The notes under the pieces are model-generated. The model did no database searches and was not told the DNA's origin. It was given only the letters and a program-made list of their open reading frames with translations. A program made the position numbers and the translations under genes. Positions 9,037-26,598 of a DNA stretch of 64,000 nucleotides are shown one piece after another. The stretch is from Bacillota bacterium (GTDB lineage Bacteria; Bacillota; Clostridia; TANB77; CAG-508): assembly GCA_963929915.1 (NCBI GenBank), contig CAWVJY010000002.1, forward strand, positions 17,798 through 81,797. The letters are read 5' to 3'. Every line of letters begins with the position of its first letter. Position 1 is the first letter of the stretch.

Positions 9037-9158
9037 TGTCAATGGGGACGGAGAATTTTGACAACTTAAGTCGTTGGGGACGGTTCTTAGTGACCCCATT
9101 TAGGGCCACTGAGAACCGTCCCTAGTAGCCCCTTTTAGGGTCACTAAGAACCGTCCCC
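9037..9158. repeat. GGGGACGG-family repeat cluster: one type A unit plus three type B units
   Basis: Type A unit TGTCAATGGGGACGGAGAATTTTGACAA at 9037-9064. Type B units: GGGGACGGTTCTTAGTGACCCC (9076-9097), AGGGCCACTGAGAACCGTCCC (9102-9122, inverted), AGGGTCACTAAGAACCGTCCCC (9137-9158, inverted). Confidence 0.88.
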
Positions 9159-10992
9159 AACATTCAACATTCTTAATGCGTTTAGTATTGCTATAATAGA
9201 AACTCCTACATCTGCAAATACTGCCCACCACATGCTAACTATTCCAATTGCAGTTAAAATAAGTATCAAAATTTTTACAATAATTGCAAAATAGATATTT
9301 TCTTTTACAATTCTCATTGTCTTTTTTGCAATTTGAATTGCTTTACTAATTTTGGATGGTTCATCTGTCATAATTACTACATCTGCTGCTTCTATTGCTG
9401 CATCTGAGCCAACTCCACCCATAGCAATTCCAATATCGGAAAGTGCTAATACCGGTGCATCATTAATCCCATCTCCTGCAAAGACTAATTTTGCGTTTTC
9501 TGTTTTACTTTTTAGTAGTTCTTCTACTTTTTCTACTTTTCCATCTGGTAAAAGTTCTGCATATACCTCATCCATTTTTAGTTCTTTTGCTACTGCTTCT
9601 GCTACTTGTTTTTTATCTCCGGTAAGCATAACTGTTTTTTGAATGTGATTTTTCTTTAGGTCTTCTATTGCTCGTTTTGCATCTTGTTTAATTTTATCTG
9701 CAATTACAATAGTTCCTGCAAATTTTCCATCTATAGCAACATATAATATGGTTCCTATATCTCCACTTTCTTGATAATTAACATCATATTGTTTCATTAA
9801 TTTATCATTGCCTACTAAAACTTGTTTGTTTTCTACTACTGCTTCTACTCCATGACCCGAAATTTCCTTTGCTTGAGAAACCAATTTGCTATCTATTTCT
9901 TTTTGATATGCTTTTTTCAAAGATAAAGAAATAGGATGATTAGAAAAACTTTCTGCATAGGTTGCCATTTTTAACAGTTCTTCTTTTGATATATCTACTG
10001 CCTCTATCTTTTGTACCTCAAAAACACCTTCTGTTAGTGTTCCTGTTTTATCAAATACTACGATTTCCGCTTGTGCCAAAGCTTCTAAATAATTACTACC
10101 CTTTACCAAAATTCCACATTTGGAAGCTCCTCCTATTCCTCCAAAAAATCCTAAAGGAATAGAAATAACTAATGCGCATGGGCAAGATACTACTAAAAAG
10201 CTAAGTGCCCTATAAATCCAATCTGTAAAATTAGCATTTGGTATTAGTATTGGTGGCAAAATTGCTAAAAAAATAGCGATTATTACCACAATTGGTGTAT
10301 AATATTTGGCAAATTTGGTAATAAAATTTTCTGATTTTGACTTTCTACTACTTGCATTTTCTACTAAATCTAATATTTTGCTAACAGTAGATTCTCCAAA
10401 TTCTTTTGTTACTTGAATAGAAATAACACCTTCTTGGTTAATACATCCGGCTTAGTATTTCATCTCCTACTTTTATACTTCTTGGTACAGATTCTCCTGT
10501 TAACGCAGAGGTATCAAGCATAGATTTTCCATCTAATACAATTCCATCTAAAGGAACTTTTTCACCTGGTTTTACTACAATGGTTTCTCCAATTTTTACT
10601 TCACTTGGATCTACTTTTTGTAATTTTCCATCTCTTTTTGCATTAGCAAAATCAGGTCTAATATTCATAACACTTGCAATCGATTTTCTAGATTTATCCA
10701 CTGCATAACTTTGGAATAATTCTCCTACTTGGTAAAATAACATAACTGCAACTGCTTCTGGAAGTTCTCCAATAGCAAATGCTCCAAGAGTTGCAATTGT
10801 CATTAAAAAGTTTTCGTCAAATACTTTTCCTCTAAAAATATTGCGAATGGCTTTCCAAACAATTGGAAAACCGACAATAATATAGCTTATAATATAAATT
10901 GCATTATTAATCCAAACATTTGCAAACCTAATAGTTAATGCTACTATAAATAATGATAAAGCAATTATTACCTGTATCACTCTTTTTTTCAT
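9144..10992 (-). pseudogene. cadA: heavy-metal (Cd/Zn/Co-type) P1B-type ATPase, frameshifted near 10290-10440
   Basis: Two ORFs (10438-10992 and 9144-10289) together give the TM/actuator part, CPC motif (VSCPCALV), DKTGTLT and GDGINDAP. The missing linker (INQEGVISIQVTKEFGESTVSKILDLVENASSRKSK...) is readable in another frame. Confidence 0.85.
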
Positions 10993-11925: not shown

Positions 11926-12916
11926 TTATGCACAAATTTCACTTAAGATTTCGTTGGTACTTTTATAATTAAACATAGCTCTTGGATAATTATTTATCCA
12001 ATCTTCTATTTTTTGTATAAATTCTTCTGATATTGGTGTTATATCAATTCCTTTTGGTATAAACCTTCTTATTAATCTATTAGCATTTTCATTACTTCCT
12101 CGTTCTCCTGAACGATATGGATGGGCATAATATATTTGTGTTCTAGCCTTTTTTCTTCGATTATCATAAGATTTCTCTAAAGCCTTCCAATTTCTAAATT
12201 CTCCACCATTATCAAAAGTTATAGTTTTAAATTTATTATAAAATATTTTTTTATATTTCTTTTCTATTATATCTAATGCTTTTGCTACATATTCTGCTTT
12301 CTTTCCGGGTAGCTTTACGATTATTTCTTCCCTTGTCTTTCTTTCAGTTAAAGTAAATAATACTGAACCTCTTTTTTTAGTTCCTATTACTAAATCTCCT
12401 TCCCAATGTCCATATATTTCTCTACTATTAGCTTCTTCTGGTCTATAATCTATACTCTTTTCTGCTGGTACTTTTTCGCATACTGTCTTTTCTTTATTTT
12501 TTTCCTTATATTCTTTGTTGTAAATCATATCGCTTGATTTTATATCATAAATATCTCCTGCATATATATTATTTCTAATTGTTCTTGCACACATTTTTGT
12601 TTTAAAATTCATTGTTTTTATCTCTTTTGCTATTACTTCTGGTGACTTTTTATCTTCTTTTATAGCTTTTTCAACATATTCTTTTAATTCATAATCATTA
12701 TCTATTTTTAACTTTGGTCCTTTTGCTTTTAAATAATATTCATATTTTTGCTGTGCTACATCTGCACTATATACCCATATTTCAATTAATTCCGTTGTTA
12801 GATTTTTTACTAATCCTCTTTTTATTTCATTCCTTATTGTCTTTTCTGTTCTATCTAAAAGTTCAGCTATTTCAAGTTTTGTACGTTTATCTCTATTCCA
12901 CCATCTTTCTATTGAT
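11926..12916 (-). pseudogene. IS30-family DDE transposase, C-terminal 330 codons (the N-terminal 26 codons lie at 14563-14642)
   Basis: HWEGDLV...TFDNGGEF...RGSNENANRLIRRFIPKG is the IS30 DDE signature. The frame stays open upstream of Met 12612 (SIERWWNRDKRTKLEIAELLDRTEKTIRNEIKRG) up to the insertion junction. Confidence 0.85.
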
Positions 12917-14562
12917 GGTCAATTGTAAAAATAAATTTTATTTAGAAAAAGTAACTTCTAGTTACCGAAAAAAAGCTATTTAAAAGCAAAAAAATGGTAA
13001 AAAGAGGTTGCTTTTTTTATGAATTTTGTGTAAAATGAAGATATAGACAAGAAAAAAGAGCGCAATTAAGCGAGTGAATTCAAATTAATTTTTTTGAGTG
13101 TAAGACTAATTTCTATTCACTTAATTTTGTGGACACGACAGTGCCAATATTAAATTAGCGTGGATACTTCTTGTAGATGTTTTTTTAATTATTTTAAGAG
13201 ATAAGGTTGTAGTGTGACCTTATCTTTTTCAATCTTTTGTATGTTTAGTTTATCTAAAGTAACTTTACCATAGAAAAATTCAAATGCTTCATATGGTGTT
13301 TTTCCACCTAAAGACTTTCTAGGTACAGAATTGATATGTGAAAACATTAAGTTAAGCTTGTCCTGAGTTAAATCTTTAAAGCTTTTTTTCTTAGACAGAA
13401 TATCACGTACAAATATATGATTATTCTCTACATGAGGCTTCTGGCTAGACATTTGAGCATCACAGTAAAAAATATTGCTTCTAATTTCTCCAGTCTCACA
13501 ATTAATTTCAAAAAGCTGTGGCTTAGCAAATTCGGATCCTCTGTCAGTAAGAAGTAAGCCAAATAACTTATGATACATATCATCTGATAAAATATCCTGA
13601 AAGTAATTAAGAGAATTGGACATTTCCTCAGCCGTTTTATGTTGTTTTAAAAGCCCTATCATAAAGCCTGTATTTTCAAATATGAAAGTCTGGATAAATG
13701 GACCGTTCTGATTATTGTAAACAGTATCCATTTCAGTTGTAGGCATATCAGAATTGTTCTTTACAAACTCTAGATAATCTTCATACTTTCTACCGGTGTA
13801 ATCAGCAGGTTCAGCTCTTTTCTTGAGTTTTTTCTTTCTAGATATTTTCCTTTTTACTTTTCTTCTTAGTTCAAGGTCAGTAACACCCCAATCTTTGAAT
13901 AAGCCCATTTCAATGTATGTATAAATTGTCTTTTCACATTGCTTGATTTCTTTGTGATTTTGTAAAATTGTATAAATTGATTGACCTTGTTTTATTAAAG
14001 GACAAATGACATGTGCTAATTCATAAAGTTCAGTTGTGTTTAAATTAACACCTTGTCTAGAATCTTTTAAAGTATATTCATAATTGCTTTGAGCAGTATT
14101 AGCGTAGTAGAAGTATTTGGCTTTATTACATTTTTTAATGTTAGGGCAACAATTACAAGCACCTATGAATCTGTCTCTTTGAAGACAAGGAACTTCCTCA
14201 AAATCAATACATTTGCTAACACAAACTTTGCATTCATTGAAATGTTTGCAAGCCCAAGGGGCTTCATCAATTTTAGAATATCTACGTTTTCTATTGTTTT
14301 TAATTTCCTTTCCGATAGTAGATTGACTTTTGTTAAGTTCTTTAGCAGTTTGGAATTTTCTTAATCTTTTGCAAATATTTTGTTCGATAACTTTCCTATC
14401 TTCTAAAGATAGATGCTTACCATCAAATTTCATAAATACCTTCTTTCTCAAGAAGTATCCACATTTATATTATACTAAATTGCATTTAATCTTACAATAA
14501 CTGTTAATTTACTATTAATTTGTATTTATTTTTTATTGAATAGAATTTACTTTTTTAATTAA
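12917..14562 (-). mobile_element. inner IS element (1646 bp) inserted into the outer IS30 transposase gene
   Basis: Flanked by a 15-bp direct duplication CATCTTTCTATTGAT (12902-12916 and 14563-14577). Imperfect terminal inverted repeats of about 25 bp (about 19/25 matches by eye). Carries its own transposase. Confidence 0.8.
13189..14451 (-). CDS. DDE transposase, divergent IS30-like, with a Cys-rich insert
   Basis: N-terminal HTH (HLSLEDRKVIEQ...STIGKEIKNN). Catalytic-type motifs MDTV, TDRGSEF and PHVENNH, followed by SVPRKSLGGKTPYE as in IS30-family enzymes. Confidence 0.75.
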   Translation of the reverse strand: MRKKVFMKFDGKHLSLEDRKVIEQNICKRLRKFQTAKELNKSQSTIGKEIKNNRKRRYSKIDEAPWACKHFNECKVCVSKCIDFEEVPCLQRDRFIGACNCCPNIKKCNKAKYFYYANTAQSNYEYTLKDSRQGVNLNTTELYELAHVICPLIKQGQSIYTILQNHKEIKQCEKTIYTYIEMGLFKDWGVTDLELRRKVKRKISRKKKLKKRAEPADYTGRKYEDYLEFVKNNSDMPTTEMDTVYNNQNGPFIQTFIFENTGFMIGLLKQHKTAEEMSNSLNYFQDILSDDMYHKLFGLLLTDRGSEFAKPQLFEINCETGEIRSNIFYCDAQMSSQKPHVENNHIFVRDILSKKKSFKDLTQDKLNLMFSHINSVPRKSLGGKTPYEAFEFFYGKVTLDKLNIQKIEKDKVTLQPYLLK

Positions 14563-22059: not shown

Positions 22060-22300
22060 AAAATGTATTGTATCCCTTTAACAATAAAAATACTCCTAAA
22101 ATATATTTTCCATATATTTTAGGAGTGCTTTTATAACACGGTTCCATCCCTTAAATTTACTTAATTACTTCTTTAACGCAGAAATACGTCTAGTTTTTGC
22201 TAGAAACAATGAGGTAGTTTTTCAAATCCGTTTATTTAGACTAGCTTTCAGCCTATGACTAATCTTCTCTTTTAACAACCTTGATTTTACTTTGTCTCAT
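22060..22300 (-). promoter_or_regulatory. T-box riboswitch leader of thrS with intrinsic terminator
   Basis: Minus strand has AAUUUAAGGGAUGGAACCGUG (22137-22158), matching the T-box consensus AAnnnGGGUGGUACCGCG. It is followed by terminator ACTCCTAAAATATAT-loop-ATATATTTTAGGAGT (22091-22127) plus a U-run. Upstream there is an AGAGA-like element and an ACU/ACC-containing candidate specifier region. Confidence 0.8.
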
Positions 22301-22330
22301 TTTTGTCTTTTTCTTTATCACTTAAAATGA

Positions 22331-22359
22331 ATTATACTCTTTTTTTGAGCAGTAGTCAA
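22331..22359 (-). promoter_or_regulatory. thrS promoter
   Basis: Minus strand: TTGACT (22354-22359), 17-nt spacer, TATAAT (22331-22336). Confidence 0.6.
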
Positions 22360-22488: not shown

Positions 22489-22761
22489 TTAAGTAAAGAA
22501 ATGAGAAAATGTCCCAAAAATTTCAAAATAATTGCTTCTTACTTTTCCATATAGCATAACTAAATCCCATTTTTTTAAATTTCTATAAATATAGTCTGCT
22601 ACATCATCATATGCTCTTGCATAAATAATGTTATTATCCTTTTCTATAATAAGTTTCACAATAGATGTATGTTTTCTACTAATGCTTTTTTCTTTTGTAT
22701 TATAAATAAATTCTAATTTTATTTCATTTTTTATATTTCCACCTATAAATCCAATATTCAT
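22489..22761 (-). CDS. small hypothetical protein (90 aa), possibly OB-fold/SSB-like
   Basis: ATG 22761 has RBS GGGAGAA. ARAYDDVADYIYRNLKKWDLVMLYGKVRS loosely resembles the SSB OB-fold segment (W..lAE.v..yLkKG..v.v.G.l..). Lies downstream of the DGR TR on the same strand. Confidence 0.4.
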   Translation of the reverse strand: MNIGFIGGNIKNEIKLEFIYNTKEKSISRKHTSIVKLIIEKDNNIIYARAYDDVADYIYRNLKKWDLVMLYGKVRSNYFEIFGTFSHFFT

Positions 22762-23047
22762 AAGTTTTTCTCCCATTCTTAATAACATAAAAGTAATACA
22801 TTCAGCATAATCTATACTCGATTTTCTTTTTATAATATAAAACCAAACATTTCATAACTTACTAATATTACTTTTATTGATACATTTTTACCTACTTACC
22901 ATATCTTTGTATTAATTTCATCATGTACCTTATCATTACTGTATATAATGCCAATTAATATGATTTTTTGGAAGGAATAAATCTCTTTAATACTAATACT
23001 ATCACTGAATATATTCCGTAAAATATATTATCTGGAAATTGTATTAG

Positions 23048-23187
23048 AGTGTGGGTCTGGTGGAGATGTTGGAATTGTTGTCGTTGTTCGGATTGTTGTT
23101 GTTGCGGTTGGAAGCTGGATTGTTAGAGCCGGAATTGTTGTAATTGCCACCACGATTAACACGATTGTTGGTGTTGTTGGCCTTTTG
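23048..23187 (-). repeat. DGR template repeat (TR)
   Basis: 140 nt, gap-free alignment to 25349-25488. The sense (minus) strand is rich in AAC/AAT codons. All 20 differences from the VR are at sense-strand adenines of this copy. Non-coding location 100 nt downstream of the RT stop. Confidence 0.93.
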
Positions 23188-23288
23188 ATTTATCCCTAAT
23201 TCTTTATTTAATTTTATTATTATTGTAATTTGTATTTTTTATTTTAATTTGTAATTTTACTATTGTTTCATACTAAATTTATATCACT

Positions 23289-24329
23289 TTACTCTATATA
23301 AAATATTTTTTTCGTCAAATTATAGATATTGGCATAATGAATATACCCCATATGTCCTGCTAAATACTTTTTAGCTTCTTTGCTACTTATTTTTCCACTT
23401 TTTATATTGTATTTTAATTCTTTTACTTTTTTCTTAAGTTTTCTTTTTCCCTTATCTCGTATTTTTAGCCTATATTCATTAATTTTATATCCACAAAAAT
23501 TCACTCCTTGTTTGCTTTTAAATATTTGTGTTTTTTCATTAAGTTCTAGTTCTAAATGGAATTTTAAGAACTTCTTAATATTTTTTAAATATGTTTTAGC
23601 TTCTTTTTTTGTTTTTGCAAATAATACCATATCATCGAGATAACGAAAGTAATACTTCACTTTCAAACTATGCTTTATATATTGATCCAATTCATTTAAA
23701 TAGATATTAGCAAAAGTTTGAGATGTATAATTTCCTATTGGTAAACCTTTTCTTTTACCTAATTGGTTTTCTAATTCTTCTTTTGTGCAGTTTGAATAAA
23801 TAATTTCTTGTAATAACCATAATAGCTTTTTATCTGTTATTTTTCTTTTTAATATTTGAAACAAAATATCTTTATCAATATGATCAAAATATTTTCTAAT
23901 ATCCATTTTTAAAATATAATAATTATCCCAAATTCTTTTACAATGTTTCATTGTGTTTTGTACATCAATGCATGCTTTATGCATTCCTCTATTTTTAATG
24001 CAAGCATAGGTATGAAATATAAAGCTTTTTTCGAAATACTGTTTTAAAAAATTATCTACTACCCATCTATGTACAATTCTATCTATATATCTGCTTTTTT
24101 CTATTCTTCTTAATTTTTGTTCTGTTACATAAAAGGTAGTATATCCACCATGCCTATAACTTCCTGTTTTTAATTGTTCATAAAGCCACATAATATATTC
24201 TTCTTGTTTTAAGTTAAATAAGATAATTTCTTTTCTATAGCCTTTACCTTTTCTACTTAACTTATGGGCTTGCATTAGATTTTCATAATTCAGCTTTTTG
24301 TCATATTCATTTTTTATTTTTCTTGCCAT
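23289..24329 (-). CDS. DGR reverse transcriptase
   Basis: RT motifs RKYFDHID, LPIGNYTSQTFANIYL (DGR-type [LIV]GxxxSQ signature) and YLDDMVLF (YxDD). 346 aa with no maturase or endonuclease extension. Confidence 0.92.
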   Translation of the reverse strand: MARKIKNEYDKKLNYENLMQAHKLSRKGKGYRKEIILFNLKQEEYIMWLYEQLKTGSYRHGGYTTFYVTEQKLRRIEKSRYIDRIVHRWVVDNFLKQYFEKSFIFHTYACIKNRGMHKACIDVQNTMKHCKRIWDNYYILKMDIRKYFDHIDKDILFQILKRKITDKKLLWLLQEIIYSNCTKEELENQLGKRKGLPIGNYTSQTFANIYLNELDQYIKHSLKVKYYFRYLDDMVLFAKTKKEAKTYLKNIKKFLKFHLELELNEKTQIFKSKQGVNFCGYKINEYRLKIRDKGKRKLKKKVKELKYNIKSGKISSKEAKKYLAGHMGYIHYANIYNLTKKIFYIE

Positions 24330-24666
24330 AATATTTAATAAGTCCTCCTACTAGTTTTCCTATTTCAGAAATGTATGACATAGCTATATTAAATTTTTTC
24401 TCATCTATCCATCTATTTTTTACCATCAGTCTTAAGAATATCCTTTGGCAATTTAGCTCTACATCTATTTTGTCTATATAATATAGCCTTTTGCTTTCAT
24501 CTATTTTTACAATATACATTACATTTTTTAGCATTTCATACATGGATACCTTATATTCATTACCTATACTAAATTTTTCTGTTCTTGGTAATTTTATTAG
24601 TAGATTTAGCATGTATTCTATATATGTTTCTACTTTTGGTATTAATAATAATCCTTGTTCTTCCAT
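24307..24666 (-). CDS. avd: DGR accessory variability determinant (Avd-like four-helix-bundle protein)
   Basis: 119-aa basic helical protein. LPRTEKFSIGNEY and C-terminal EIGKLVGGLIKY resemble bAvd / 23S rRNA intervening-sequence-protein family motifs. Overlaps the RT start by 23 nt. Confidence 0.8.
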   Translation of the reverse strand: MEEQGLLLIPKVETYIEYMLNLLIKLPRTEKFSIGNEYKVSMYEMLKNVMYIVKIDESKRLYYIDKIDVELNCQRIFLRLMVKNRWIDEKKFNIAMSYISEIGKLVGGLIKYYGKKNKK

Positions 24667-24689
24667 TGTTTTTTATACCATTGTATATT

Positions 24690-25106
24690 TTATAAATTTT
24701 TTATTTTTGCTATTTTTTCGTCTATTAAGTTATGATTTTGTTTAACATTCCAAGAACATTTTGCACAATTAAAACATTTTCTACTTTCTGCTACTGGTGA
24801 TAATATAATTCTTTTTAAAAGTTCATATTTCCTTTCTCTATTTTCTTTTTTGGGATAATATTCATAAATTGCTACAGATATATTTTTTGCTATTATTTTT
24901 CTTATAAATTTATCAATTTTTGCAACTGGTATTGCACACTTACATATATTTTTAGAAATACATATATTATTTAATCCAAATTGTTCTCGTAGTAATACTG
25001 CATCTTTTCCTACTCCATAAAAGAAAATTCCGCAACGTATTAATACCAAATAGTCAATATTTTCTGGCTTATTTTGTATTTCTTCCACAATTTTTAAAAA
25101 CTTCAT
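24690..25106 (-). CDS. small MutS-domain-I-like DGR accessory protein (MSL-type), 138 aa
   Basis: From ATG 25106 (RBS GGAGAA): YLVLIRCGIFFYGVGKDAVLLREQFGLN...CAIPVAKIDKFIRKIIAKNISVAIYE parallels the MutS mismatch-binding domain I pattern (l.f.r.GdFYE.f..DA......L.l.......aGvP.......l..Li..G..VAi.eQ). C-terminal CxxC..C cluster. Confidence 0.5.
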   Translation of the reverse strand: MKFLKIVEEIQNKPENIDYLVLIRCGIFFYGVGKDAVLLREQFGLNNICISKNICKCAIPVAKIDKFIRKIIAKNISVAIYEYYPKKENRERKYELLKRIILSPVAESRKCFNCAKCSWNVKQNHNLIDEKIAKIKNL

Positions 25107-25246
25107 GATTTTCTCCTTTCCTTGTGTTGTATATATTTTTTGACAAAAAAATATATACCACGCAAGTGGTATACCACGCAAGTTAATACTTTCTTGTGGC
25201 ATTTTGCCTTTGGGCAAATGCCAACAAGTAAAGTATTGATTACGTG

Positions 25247-25267
25247 GTACTCCCACATGGGGAGTAC
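25247..25267 (-). other. GC-rich hairpin about 70 nt downstream of the VR / target stop codon
   Basis: GTACTCCC-ACAT-GGGGAGTAC. A stem-loop downstream of the VR is a known feature of DGR target loci. Confidence 0.5.
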
Positions 25268-25335
25268 ACGCAATCCGTTTGTTCTAATTTTTACCCTTTA
25301 GTCAAGTACTATGTTAACTTATCCACTACTCAGTG

Positions 25336-26598
25336 TTACATTATGTAAAGTGTGGGTCTGGTGGAGATGTCGGAATTGTTGTCGTAGAGCGGATGGTTGT
25401 GGCTGCGGTAGGAAGCTGGAGAGTAAGAGCCGGAACTGTAGTAACTGCCACCACGAATAACACGACTGTAGGTGTTGAAGGCCTCTTGGGTCCATTCCGC
25501 ACAATTTCCTGCAAAATCATAAATATTATTTGCTTGCCAACTTTCTTTATATCCTGCTGTTTGTTTTGTTCCTGCTCCTTCTTCTGTATTATCACTATAA
25601 TTTCCCCAACTTGTGGAATTTTCTATATCATATCCTGCTCCTGATAACCAATTACATACTTCATCCCATTGGTTTACATAAATCATTGTTGTTTTTGCTA
25701 TTATTTCACTTTCTTGTTTACCTGAGTTATTAATTATTTTTGTACATGCCGCTTTTAAATTATACCAATTTTGATCTGTTATTACTGTTCCGCCTTTTGC
25801 TACTGTTGGGCTATTTATATCTCCTGTTAGTTCATATCTTCCTATATAAAATCCTCCATATTTTTCTATACTATCATGAATTTCTTGGTACTCATTTACC
25901 ATATCTTGTGCAAATTCTTGCACACTACTTGCTCCATTTATGATACTATAATATTGACTATCTGTATCATATTTCGTTACTAAATCTGGCTCTCTATAAC
26001 CTGTTGTTCCTGGTTTGTCCATTGTATAAATACTAGATTTACTGTATATACTTGTGGTTACTCCTGTTCCTCCTGATAAAGCTACTGTTTCTTCTGTATA
26101 CATTTGTGCTAGCCTTTCTGCACTTACTGGTATCCATACAAATTCATTATTGGTTCCATCTTGTTTAATTACAAATCCTTCTTCTACTTTTTGTTCTTCT
26201 TCTACTGTGGATGCTGTAAATCCATTTGGTATAGGTACATTTACTGATGGTTCATCTTTTGATGGGAATGGTGTTACTTTGCTTAAATCCCAACTTTCTG
26301 GTACTTCTGGACCTTCTGGTGTAACTCCTCCACCTGTTCCAGTTTCATTATTCATTATACTATTTAATTCATTTACTAAATTTTGAATTTCTTGTTGTTC
26401 ATTAGCTATTGCACCATCCCAGGTGTTTTTTGCTTCTTGGGCTGTTCTTATAATTCCATCTTCTCCTAGCAACATATTTATGGTTACTCCTGATAAAATC
26501 AAAAGAATTACTATGGTTACTACTAAGGCTATTAGAGTTATACCTTTTTCATTTTTGCCTTTTCTATATTTTATGCCTTCTTTTTCTCTTCTTTGCAT
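25336..26598 (-). CDS. DGR target protein: prepilin-like N-terminus plus FGE-sulfatase/C-type-lectin-fold C-terminal domain
   Basis: Basic leader then KG/ITLIALVVTIVILLILSGV (type IV prepilin-like cleavage and hydrophobic segment). C-terminal GFYIGRYELT...WDEVCNWL...NCAEWTQE...RVIRGGSY pattern of the FGE/SUMF1-type CLec fold. The VR occupies the last 47 codons. Confidence 0.85.
   Translation of the reverse strand: MQRREKEGIKYRKGKNEKGITLIALVVTIVILLILSGVTINMLLGEDGIIRTAQEAKNTWDGAIANEQQEIQNLVNELNSIMNNETGTGGGVTPEGPEVPESWDLSKVTPFPSKDEPSVNVPIPNGFTASTVEEEQKVEEGFVIKQDGTNNEFVWIPVSAERLAQMYTEETVALSGGTGVTTSIYSKSSIYTMDKPGTTGYREPDLVTKYDTDSQYYSIINGASSVQEFAQDMVNEYQEIHDSIEKYGGFYIGRYELTGDINSPTVAKGGTVITDQNWYNLKAACTKIINNSGKQESEIIAKTTMIYVNQWDEVCNWLSGAGYDIENSTSWGNYSDNTEEGAGTKQTAGYKESWQANNIYDFAGNCAEWTQEAFNTYSRVIRGGSYYSSGSYSPASYRSHNHPLYDNNSDISTRPTLYIM
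25349..25488 (-). repeat. DGR variable repeat (VR)
   Basis: Last 47 codons of the target gene (QEAFNTYSRVIRGGSYYSSGSYSPASYRSHNHPLYDNNSDISTRPTL). 120/140 identical to the TR, with mismatches only opposite TR adenines. The 3'-terminal 22 nt are identical to the TR (IMH-like). Confidence 0.93.

Follow-up and report, generated by a model that had tools for sequence, protein, structure and literature searches.

Between the housekeeping genes trxA and thrS of an uncultured gut bacterium, a reverse transcriptase (RT) gene lies between two near-identical repeats, which raises the question of whether the locus is a working diversity-generating retroelement (DGR), where such an element would end, and what its further genes might do. 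The locus was examined in a 64,000-nucleotide (nt) stretch of contig CAWVJY010000002.1 (assembly GCA_963929915.1; Bacillota, Clostridia, TANB77, CAG-508), referred to here as the window. We are highly confident that the element is a complete, chromosomally resident and recently active DGR of the MSL (MutS domain I-like) architecture in an uncultured human gut Clostridium. Both this kind of DGR and the MSL architecture are already well described, and the cassette adds one example to them; what had apparently not been tied to DGRs before is a small SSB-like gene and a structured RNA carried by the lineage. All parts lie on the minus strand in the order target, MSL, avd, RT and template repeat (TR), followed by the RT-14 RNA and the SSB-like gene, here called mini-SSB. 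A preliminary description made from the letters alone had the TR-to-target part right but missed the last two components (RT-14 at 22915-23049, the SSB-like gene at 22489-22761), so that the cassette continues for approximately 560 nt beyond the start it had been given.

The central evidence is the repeat pair and the way in which its two copies differ:

23048-23187, minus strand: TR, non-coding, 101 nt downstream of the RT stop codon, with 54 A in 140 nt and 20 AAY codons
25349-25488, minus strand: variable repeat (VR), the 140 nt of the target coding sequence that precede its final 13 nt
25349-25367, minus strand: invariant 3' zone of the VR resembling an initiation of mutagenic homing (IMH) site, TCTCCACCAGACCCACACT; the same 19 nt close the TR at 23048-23066

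A repeat finder returned one 143-nt direct repeat (23045-23187 and 25346-25488, 85 % identity, offset 2301), and a base-by-base census of the 140 ungapped positions reproduced the 20 mismatches first reported, together with the claim that every one of them is a T in the plus-strand TR, that is, an A in the sense strand, with zero non-adenine mismatches. On the sense strand the substitutions from TR to VR comprise 10 A>T, 6 A>G and 4 A>C. The probability that all 20 would fall on one of the 54 adenines by chance is 3.9e-10 (hypergeometric). The repeat register stops on both sides: position 23047, immediately after the 3' end, is a mismatch that does not fall on an A, and past 23188 the two sequences show no likeness. 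The richness in AAC and AAT codons that had been described for the template is borne out by the 20 such codons in the VR frame, and the TR adenines are distributed 26/24/4 over codon positions 1, 2 and 3; an AAY-rich template with adenines at the first and second positions allows many amino acids but never a stop codon. The theoretical repertoire from these adenines is approximately 1e27 protein variants. RT relatives in Clostridia genomes numbered 249, of which 80 (55-100 % identical) were kept, and 57 of 78 related loci likewise show the adenine-specific TR/VR pattern. At the 3' end of the repeat, 22 identical nt had been proposed as an IMH-like boundary. This identity holds in the window strain, but across strains the zone without mutation is the last 19 nt; its five adenines show zero mutation in any strain compared, which fits an IMH-like homing boundary.

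Whether the element works was approached through related strains, a comparison that the preliminary description had itself called for. Independent assemblies from the human gut carry the cassette at an identical location, and the matching genome is the metagenome-assembled genome (MAG) "uncultured Clostridium sp. MGYG-HGUT-04078". In all five other assemblies fetched whole the TR is identical at 140 of 140 positions, and the VR is different in each strain. Mismatches at TR adenines account for 20/20 in the window and for 21/23, 24/25, 27/27 and 22/22 in other strains. A sixth VR, the sole further one from a metagenome pattern scan, has 26/26, so that six distinct VRs accompany a single TR, with 140 of 143 pooled differences at TR adenines. 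Among five syntenic strains 44 VR columns vary, 41 of them at TR adenines. MSL, Avd, RT, TR, RT-14 and mini-SSB are 99.8-100 % identical between strains (100 % for TR, RT-14 and mini-SSB), and the corresponding values are 79-81 % for the VR and 93-98.6 % for the flanking housekeeping genes. Near-identical machinery beside six VRs that differ almost solely at TR adenines indicates that the VR has been rewritten repeatedly since the last common ancestor of the cassette. Judged from these alignments, the element is active, or was very recently.

The stretch from trxA to mini-SSB is more conserved (99.8-100 %) than the genes on its flanks (93-98.6 %) when loci L001-L006 are compared with the window, which may point to a sweep in recent times, or to recombination having spread the cassette through the species.

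The enzymatic core of the cassette consists of an RT and its accessory protein:

23289-24329, minus strand: DGR reverse transcriptase, 346 amino acids (aa), with IGNYTSQ and YLDD motifs; matches RVT_1 (E 2.5e-22) and phrog_1423 (E 1e-101)
24307-24666, minus strand: Avd accessory gene, 119 aa, isoelectric point (pI) 9.4; matches Pfam bAvd (E 1.3e-16, 61.4 bits, cutoff 40)

Both genes had been predicted, the RT from its two motifs between the repeats and the Avd-like gene from its overlap with the RT start, and both predictions stand. Against solved structures the best match of the RT was the bRT chain 8ub7 (E 3.2e-34, residues 2-338 aligned to 2-315), followed at a distance by the best group II RT (1.3e-19) and the best retron RT (1.2e-15). 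IGNYTSQ and YLDD are in register with IGSLTSQ and YMDD of bRT. We took 8ub7 as the Bordetella bRT from its length of 328 aa and these two motifs; a literature search on the PDB code 8UB7 gave nothing. The window RT thus shows the motif traits of the DGR clade, namely [I/L]GxxxSQ instead of QGxxxSP and a YxDD box. Neither NCBIfam nor PADLOC gave a DGR-RT match for it: the best-scoring NCBIfam models were group II maturase, Drt3a and retron RT, all far under their cutoffs, and PADLOC matches were limited to the generic RT domain, with DRT models at E 1e-32 or weaker. The Avd gene overlaps the RT start by 23 nt, and its product exceeds the Pfam bAvd threshold, reaches 72.4 bits (E 3e-20) against NCBIfam DivGenRetAVD, under the cutoff of 80, and matches the PHROG family 'Avd protein of DGR' at 2.2e-19. 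A phmmer search of the PDB found no Avd relatives.

Upstream of avd lies a third accessory gene:

24690-25106, minus strand: MSL, a MutS domain I-like protein of 138 aa; matches Pfam MutS_I (E 1.2e-8, 35.5 bits, cutoff 20.6)
25113-25123, minus strand: ribosome-binding site upstream of the MSL start

A further small accessory open reading frame (ORF) had been noted here. It is present, but its extent is 24690-25106 rather than that of a longer GTG-initiated ORF, and its class had been missed. By its size, its likeness to MutS domain I and its occurrence with avd and without HRDC, the ORF is assigned to the known MSL class (Architecture D); Pfam and NCBIfam scans gave no HRDC match on any cassette protein. 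In Wu et al. (2018, PMC5758913), MSL proteins are described as MutS domain I-like, 112-283 aa long, always with avd and never with HRDC, and one of them was placed by the authors in a Legionella DGR. The same text gives MSL proteins as neutral (pI 7.2 +/- 1.7), whereas the MSL here has a pI of 9.6 and its family a median of 9.0. Compared with an E. coli MutS reference sequence, the Phe matching the mismatch-stacking F36 is present in 56/56 MSL homologues, and the position of E38 is I, V, L or Y in 51/56 and Glu in 1/56. The Phe-X-Glu mismatch-binding motif is therefore incomplete in MSL, and the likeness to MutS is confined to the DNA-contacting half.

Beyond the TR the cassette continues with the two components that set this lineage apart:

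22915-23049, minus strand: RT-14 structured RNA (Rfam RF02921), 69.7 bits over the full-length model (gathering score 48.1), overlapping the last two bases of the TR
22489-22761, minus strand: mini-SSB, 90 aa, basic (pI 9.3), predicted SSB-like OB-fold; closes the cassette and is preceded by a ribosome-binding site of its own

RT-14 was found in 19 of 20 related loci, starting at most 1-2 nt from the detected end of TR/VR homology in 16 of the 19, and it contains the conserved segment AGUAUUAAAG...UUAUUCCUU. RNA folding of the whole intergenic region from RT to mini-SSB was not more stable than shuffles (z = +0.5), and the Rfam model alone exposed RT-14. Since it abuts the 3' end of the TR, RT-14 is by position an analogue of the spacer (Sp) of the BPP-1 DGR, and by that analogy it may be the RNA that recruits RT-Avd and primes the complementary DNA (cDNA). 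In Weinberg et al. (2017, PMC5737381) the link to a DGR was confined to RT-10, the spacer between TR and brt of BPP-1, and for the remaining RT motifs it stayed speculative. RT-14 is a curated Rfam family of structured RNAs near RT genes, and its setting here at the TR end is a new, DGR context for it.

The mini-SSB gene lies within 1.5 kb downstream of the RT and on the same strand in 65 of the 70 related loci with enough sequence, and a hidden Markov model (HMM) located it nearby in three more. Reverse look-up from two independent family members placed the gene just downstream of a DGR RT in 8/8 contexts; MutS_I and Avd were visible in six of these, and the contigs end early in the other two. 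The genes that flank mini-SSB loci are unrelated to one another (thrS, gyrA, an AAA-ATPase/PDDEXK gene). In 59 well-flanked loci MSL was present in 55, mini-SSB in 57 and both in 54. Where the cassette has been rearranged, MSL and mini-SSB are adjacent and overlap by 2 nt, and neither was found in 58 distant viral DGR loci. Relatives of mini-SSB share 30-46 % identity, with N2, G8, F18, A55, D56 and G72 conserved. A profile search put the family at no fewer than 706 clusters, all of approximately 80-100 aa, and a single-sequence word-indexed search gave three relatives. Pfam SSB matched 30 of 39 members (best 5e-7), and many database members carry a precomputed PF00436 assignment. The top PDB matches of the family profile were SSBs across the whole OB domain, at weak E values of 0.05-0.7, and the sole match of the window copy was to the OB-fold family tRNA_anti-codon, sub-threshold at E 0.003. 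The acidic C-terminal tail of bacterial SSBs is absent, as mini-SSB members end right after the OB domain. The accessories named in the main text of PMC5758913 are Avd, HRDC, MSL and CH1, together with four tenuous PAGs, each in 3-4 DGRs; that main text makes no mention of an SSB-like gene, and PAG1-4 are listed in the supplements. The searchable literature, which did not cover those supplements, gave no paper linking DGRs to an SSB or OB-fold accessory.

Variants of the cassette were also seen among the related loci. Three tandem targets stand upstream of one cassette, or a second target stands downstream (L066-L069, L086; L020, L024, L063); one locus has two tandem TR + RT-14 units (L083, 1745-2310); and several MAGs have two separate RT loci.

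What the element diversifies is the C-terminus of a predicted surface protein:

25336-26598, minus strand: target gene, 420 aa, pI 4.5; prepilin-like N-terminus, helical linker and predicted FGE-type C-type-lectin (CLec) fold
26485-26556, minus strand: class III (prepilin-type) signal-like segment K-G/ITLIALVVTIVILLIL, with G, T, L and L invariant in the family

No Pfam family matched the target above threshold. The prepilin-like segment lies at aa 15-38. An AF2 model from a 48-sequence alignment (pLDDT 77 overall, 85-96 over aa 100-410) has a low-confidence helical linker after it and then a CLec fold at aa ~100-410, modelled with confidence, with the VR at its C-terminus. Foldseek with this model gave TvpA (2y3c; E 1e-4, probability 1.0) as the top match, then TaqVP, PorK, EgtB and PvdO; TvpA and TaqVP are both solved DGR variable proteins. 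Within the family, N_methyl matched 43/48 members (best 1.2e-4) and FGE-sulfatase 24/48, and the family profile matched 1y4j in the PDB at E 0.0097 over residues 332-412. The model places the VR on the predicted ligand-binding face of the FGE-type C-type-lectin domain of a pilin-like surface protein. For the N-terminus, the window target falls just under the gathering score of Pfam N_methyl (19.3 against 21.2 bits, E 7.9e-4), the segment matched pilin N-termini in the PDB at E 0.03-0.09 and PHROG 'pilin' at 0.0027, and its G-I-T-L is essentially invariant among the 48 family members.

Three further features of the target were recorded. Two segments outside the VR, aa 81-110 (~26269-26358) and aa 191-235 (~25894-26028), have 63 % and 64-70 % nt identity between strains, with indels; they have no TR template and occur as two allele types plus one chimeric protein (P0003), which suggests recombination or diversifying selection on a surface protein. 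Over aa 51-202 (~25993-26448), which take in the linker and the start of the globular region, the family profile unexpectedly matched a PDB entry named 'LysM domain protein' (6rjw, E 5e-4). Finally, lone target homologues approximately 75 % identical occur in L007 (6001-7254) and L010 (6001-7263), where a span of 6 kb around them holds neither RT nor Avd nor MSL; with their VR-like C-termini they are candidate remote targets for diversification in trans.

Between the target and MSL genes lies an unusually structured spacer:

25130-25271, minus strand: structured target-MSL spacer; DNA fold of -49.9 kcal/mol, z = -7.2 against shuffles
25242-25271, minus strand: hairpin H1, short, with compensatory stem changes among related loci
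25185-25237, minus strand: hairpin H2, long and near-perfect
25154-25184, minus strand: tandem direct repeat, the second copy of which forms a terminator-like hairpin with a T-run
25130-25157, minus strand: hairpin H4, the last of the spacer

The terminator-like site runs from 25174 to 25153. A tandem repeat with T-run was found in 23 of 34 related loci and in 0/340 shuffles, and hairpins of at least 15 bp in 15 of the 34 and again in 0/340 shuffles. In loci L013-L089 the spacer is conserved in layout and not in sequence, with a repeat unit of 13-29 nt, often CCAC-N4-GTGGCG, and a long hairpin of 20-35 bp; no further copy of the repeat unit was found near the TR or elsewhere in each cassette. 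The spacer may help in recognition of the target, insulate or process the operon, or hold operator sites, and its module of hairpins and tandem repeat, which follows the VR, is possibly one more cis element not yet described. A riboswitch-like terminator/antiterminator reading of the repeat was dropped because the alternative pairing would have no loop in most loci.

Directly after the target stop codon (25324-25348, minus strand), many related loci carry two CTG-containing half-repeats, for example CACTGACCACTGA and GCTGAATGCTGTG; the window has CACTGAGTAGTG at this place. This motif may be part of target recognition.

The chromosomal setting between trxA and thrS, as originally described, is upheld by the housekeeping flanks, by synteny shared with five other same-species assemblies and by viral relatives that are at most 40 % identical. 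In the strains the order is Ca-ATPase, deacetylase, trxB, trxA, target, MSL, Avd, RT, TR, small ORF and thrS, and the cassette also adjoins thrS in a species with an RT 72 % identical. In IMG/VR the nearest RT shares 40 % identity with that of the window, and among GenBank phages the nearest shares 37 %. Upstream of thrS are an 11/12 match to a sigma-70 promoter (22331-22359, minus strand) and, following it, a match to a T-box leader (22118-22312, minus strand; 54.5 bits, under the gathering score of 93, E 3e-10), and together these mark the downstream boundary of the cassette. Judged from the GC skew of the plus strand (-0.145) and from the placing of 41 of 46 long ORFs on the minus strand, the target is co-directional with replication.

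How do other explanations fare against this evidence? An RT from a different family (retron, group II intron or defence RT), with the repeat arising by chance or as a remnant of duplication, would agree with the group II maturase, Drt3a and retron RT models of NCBIfam and the DRT models of PADLOC, but among solved structures bRT leads by 15 orders of magnitude, and Avd, the restriction to adenines and the CLec target are specific to DGRs. The locus also has no intron RNA domain and no retron msr/msd, its sole Rfam match being the RT-14 that abuts the TR. We regard such an origin as practically negligible, and the retron, group II intron and defence RT identities are ruled out by the adenine-specific TR/VR pattern together with Avd. 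The element could instead be a fossil that records past activity while its target is no longer diversified. The exact target protein of the window occurs on six contigs and is thus stable enough for repeated assembly, as a fossil would be. However, all ORFs are intact, the catalytic YLDD is present, and six VRs stand beside machinery that is 99.8-100 % identical, which implies retrohoming after the last common ancestor of the cassette, at a time younger than the divergence of the flanking genes. A fossil is very unlikely on these grounds. A DGR borne by a phage or mobile element and integrated here, for example for tropism switching, is slightly less probable still. Many DGRs are phage-borne, fragments of IS30 transposases lie approximately 9 kb away (11926-14451), and the higher conservation of the cassette than of its flanks could mean recent transfer between strains. 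Nevertheless, the neighbours are trxA, trxB, the deacetylase, the Ca-ATPase and a thrS with its own promoter and T-box; synteny is the same in all strains and thrS is again adjacent in another species; there are no phage structural genes; the nearest viral RTs are as distant as stated above; and the target resembles a pilin-like cellular protein rather than a tail fibre.

The least improbable of the other explanations concerns the extent of the cassette: the SSB-like ORF might be a conserved neighbour or an over-called ORF with no part in retrohoming, which would leave an ordinary four-gene DGR of the MSL type. The mini-SSB of the window has just the sub-threshold OB-fold match, its fold is a prediction from sequence, and 2 of the 59 well-flanked loci do without the gene. 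Yet it follows the RT in 65 of 70 loci despite unrelated flanking genes, retains its conserved residues at 30-46 % identity and has its own ribosome-binding site; it stays with MSL when cassettes are rearranged, and is absent from the 58 viral DGR loci, which lack MSL. We consider an uninvolved neighbour improbable, at roughly one chance in several. The wider proposal, that the cassette represents a distinct five-gene DGR subtype of gut Clostridia with its own single-strand-binding and MutS domain I proteins and with RT-14 as its priming RNA, we hold to be evenly poised between true and false.

Several observations weigh against the reading of the locus as an active DGR of this composition. 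Activity we infer from comparison between strains, and 3 of the 143 VR differences fall at non-adenine positions. Inside the repeat IMH and IMH* do not differ: TR and VR share their last 19-22 nt, and divergence begins right after. The hairpin that overlaps the target stop codon is weak (5 bp), and the strong ones stand 65-160 nt away from where the VR ends, unlike the adjacent one of BPP-1; given both features, target recognition may work differently from that of BPP-1. A sigma-70 promoter scan was at background for this DNA of 28.5 % GC (34 found, 33 expected from shuffles) and assigned no promoter to the cassette, and a terminator-like hairpin stands between target and MSL. The SSB-like fold of mini-SSB has weak to moderate sequence signals behind it: hhalign to SSB gave E 0.001 at a probability of 20 %, and a single-sequence AlphaFold model was unusable (pLDDT 44). 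The roles of mini-SSB and MSL we infer only. As for the target, mature position +5 is Ala in 43 of 48 family members, Thr in 4, Ser in 1 and Glu in none, so that a defining pilin feature is lacking in the family, and no prepilin peptidase or pilus assembly genes were found in the 64-kb window. Tip minor pseudopilins such as GspK likewise lack Glu5, and by this analogy a tip-subunit role for the target is possible.

For an active DGR with these components, the following sequence of events is proposed. MSL, avd, RT, TR, RT-14 and possibly mini-SSB would be transcribed together. RT-Avd would dock on RT-14 at the 3' end of the TR and prime cDNA there, as the BPP-1 spacer does, and the 140-nt TR would be copied with misincorporation opposite adenines. 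The single-stranded cDNA might then be coated by the SSB-like protein of the cassette and anneal to the VR on the lagging-strand template, with the last 19 nt (IMH-like) and the VR-specific 3' flank setting the homing boundary. MSL could bind the resulting mismatches through its invariant Phe and, having neither the Glu nor an ATPase, would be unable to start repair, so that the changes would be fixed. Work in E. coli has found that the spacer primes cDNA, that ExoI inhibits DGR activity and that lagging-strand orientation, which is also the one proposed for the target here, is favoured (PMC12875486).

A comparison with the paradigm DGR of phage BPP-1 (mtd-avd-TR-Sp-brt) shows a shared core with several disparities. 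The two have end-to-end homologous RTs with IGxxTSQ and YxDD motifs, an Avd protein, adenine-specific mutagenesis from TR to VR at the 3' end of a gene for a CLec-fold protein, an invariant IMH-like 3' segment, and a structured RNA directly 3' of the TR (RT-10/Sp in BPP-1, RT-14 here). BPP-1 is phage-borne with the order target-avd-TR-RT, in contrast to the cellular chromosomal location and the order target-MSL-avd-RT-TR here, and it lacks MSL and mini-SSB, both of which are extra here. The cassette also differs in having no IMH/IMH* mismatch inside the repeat, in the distance of its strong hairpins from the VR (65-160 nt, adjacent in BPP-1), and in its target, predicted to be an FGE-type CLec on a pilin-like anchor where that of BPP-1 is the Mtd tail-fibre tip.

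Closer in setting is the TvpA DGR of Treponema denticola, which is also chromosomal, has an FGE-type C-type-lectin target with the VR at the C-terminus, and provided the best structural match (2y3c). TvpA is a lipoprotein, whereas the target here has a prepilin-like N-terminus. The Treponema DGR belongs to an HRDC-containing architecture, according to the main text of PMC5758913, in place of the Avd, MSL and mini-SSB found here. DGRs of Bacteroides diversify type V pilus tip adhesins (bioRxiv 10.1101/2024.11.15.621889), and a 2024 survey lists GspG-type pilin domains among the rare VR-bearing domains (PMC11661182). With the Bacteroides systems the cassette shares a human gut commensal host and a DGR that acts on a pilus-associated or pilin-like surface protein. 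It differs from them in phylum and in its signal, which is type IV/pseudopilin-like rather than type V, and its likeness to pilins consists of the N-terminal motif alone, without Glu5.

Elsewhere in the window, a heavy-metal P-type ATPase is split into two ORFs on the minus strand, N-terminal at 10438-10992 and C-terminal at 9144-10289. Beside it stand two ORFs of IS30-family transposases, one of them partial (11926-14451, minus strand), and the split ATPase is probably a disrupted gene in a region affected by insertion sequences.

The human gut microbiota is already known to be rich in DGRs, and as a DGR the element is one more active chromosomal example. Its value is in the extras of the lineage: the orphan Rfam family RT-14 gains a concrete position and a likely job, and the SSB-like and MutS-domain proteins, found together in 54 of 59 well-flanked loci, point to the step from cDNA to target. 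If the five-gene subtype is real, entry of cDNA into the VR and keeping of the mismatches would be handled by element-encoded factors for single-stranded DNA annealing and repair evasion, and the least understood step of DGR function would become directly testable. This DGR lineage also offers compact parts for reconstituted systems. For the organism, the element would provide a pilin-like surface protein with approximately 1e27 potential binding surfaces in an abundant but uncultured group of gut bacteria.

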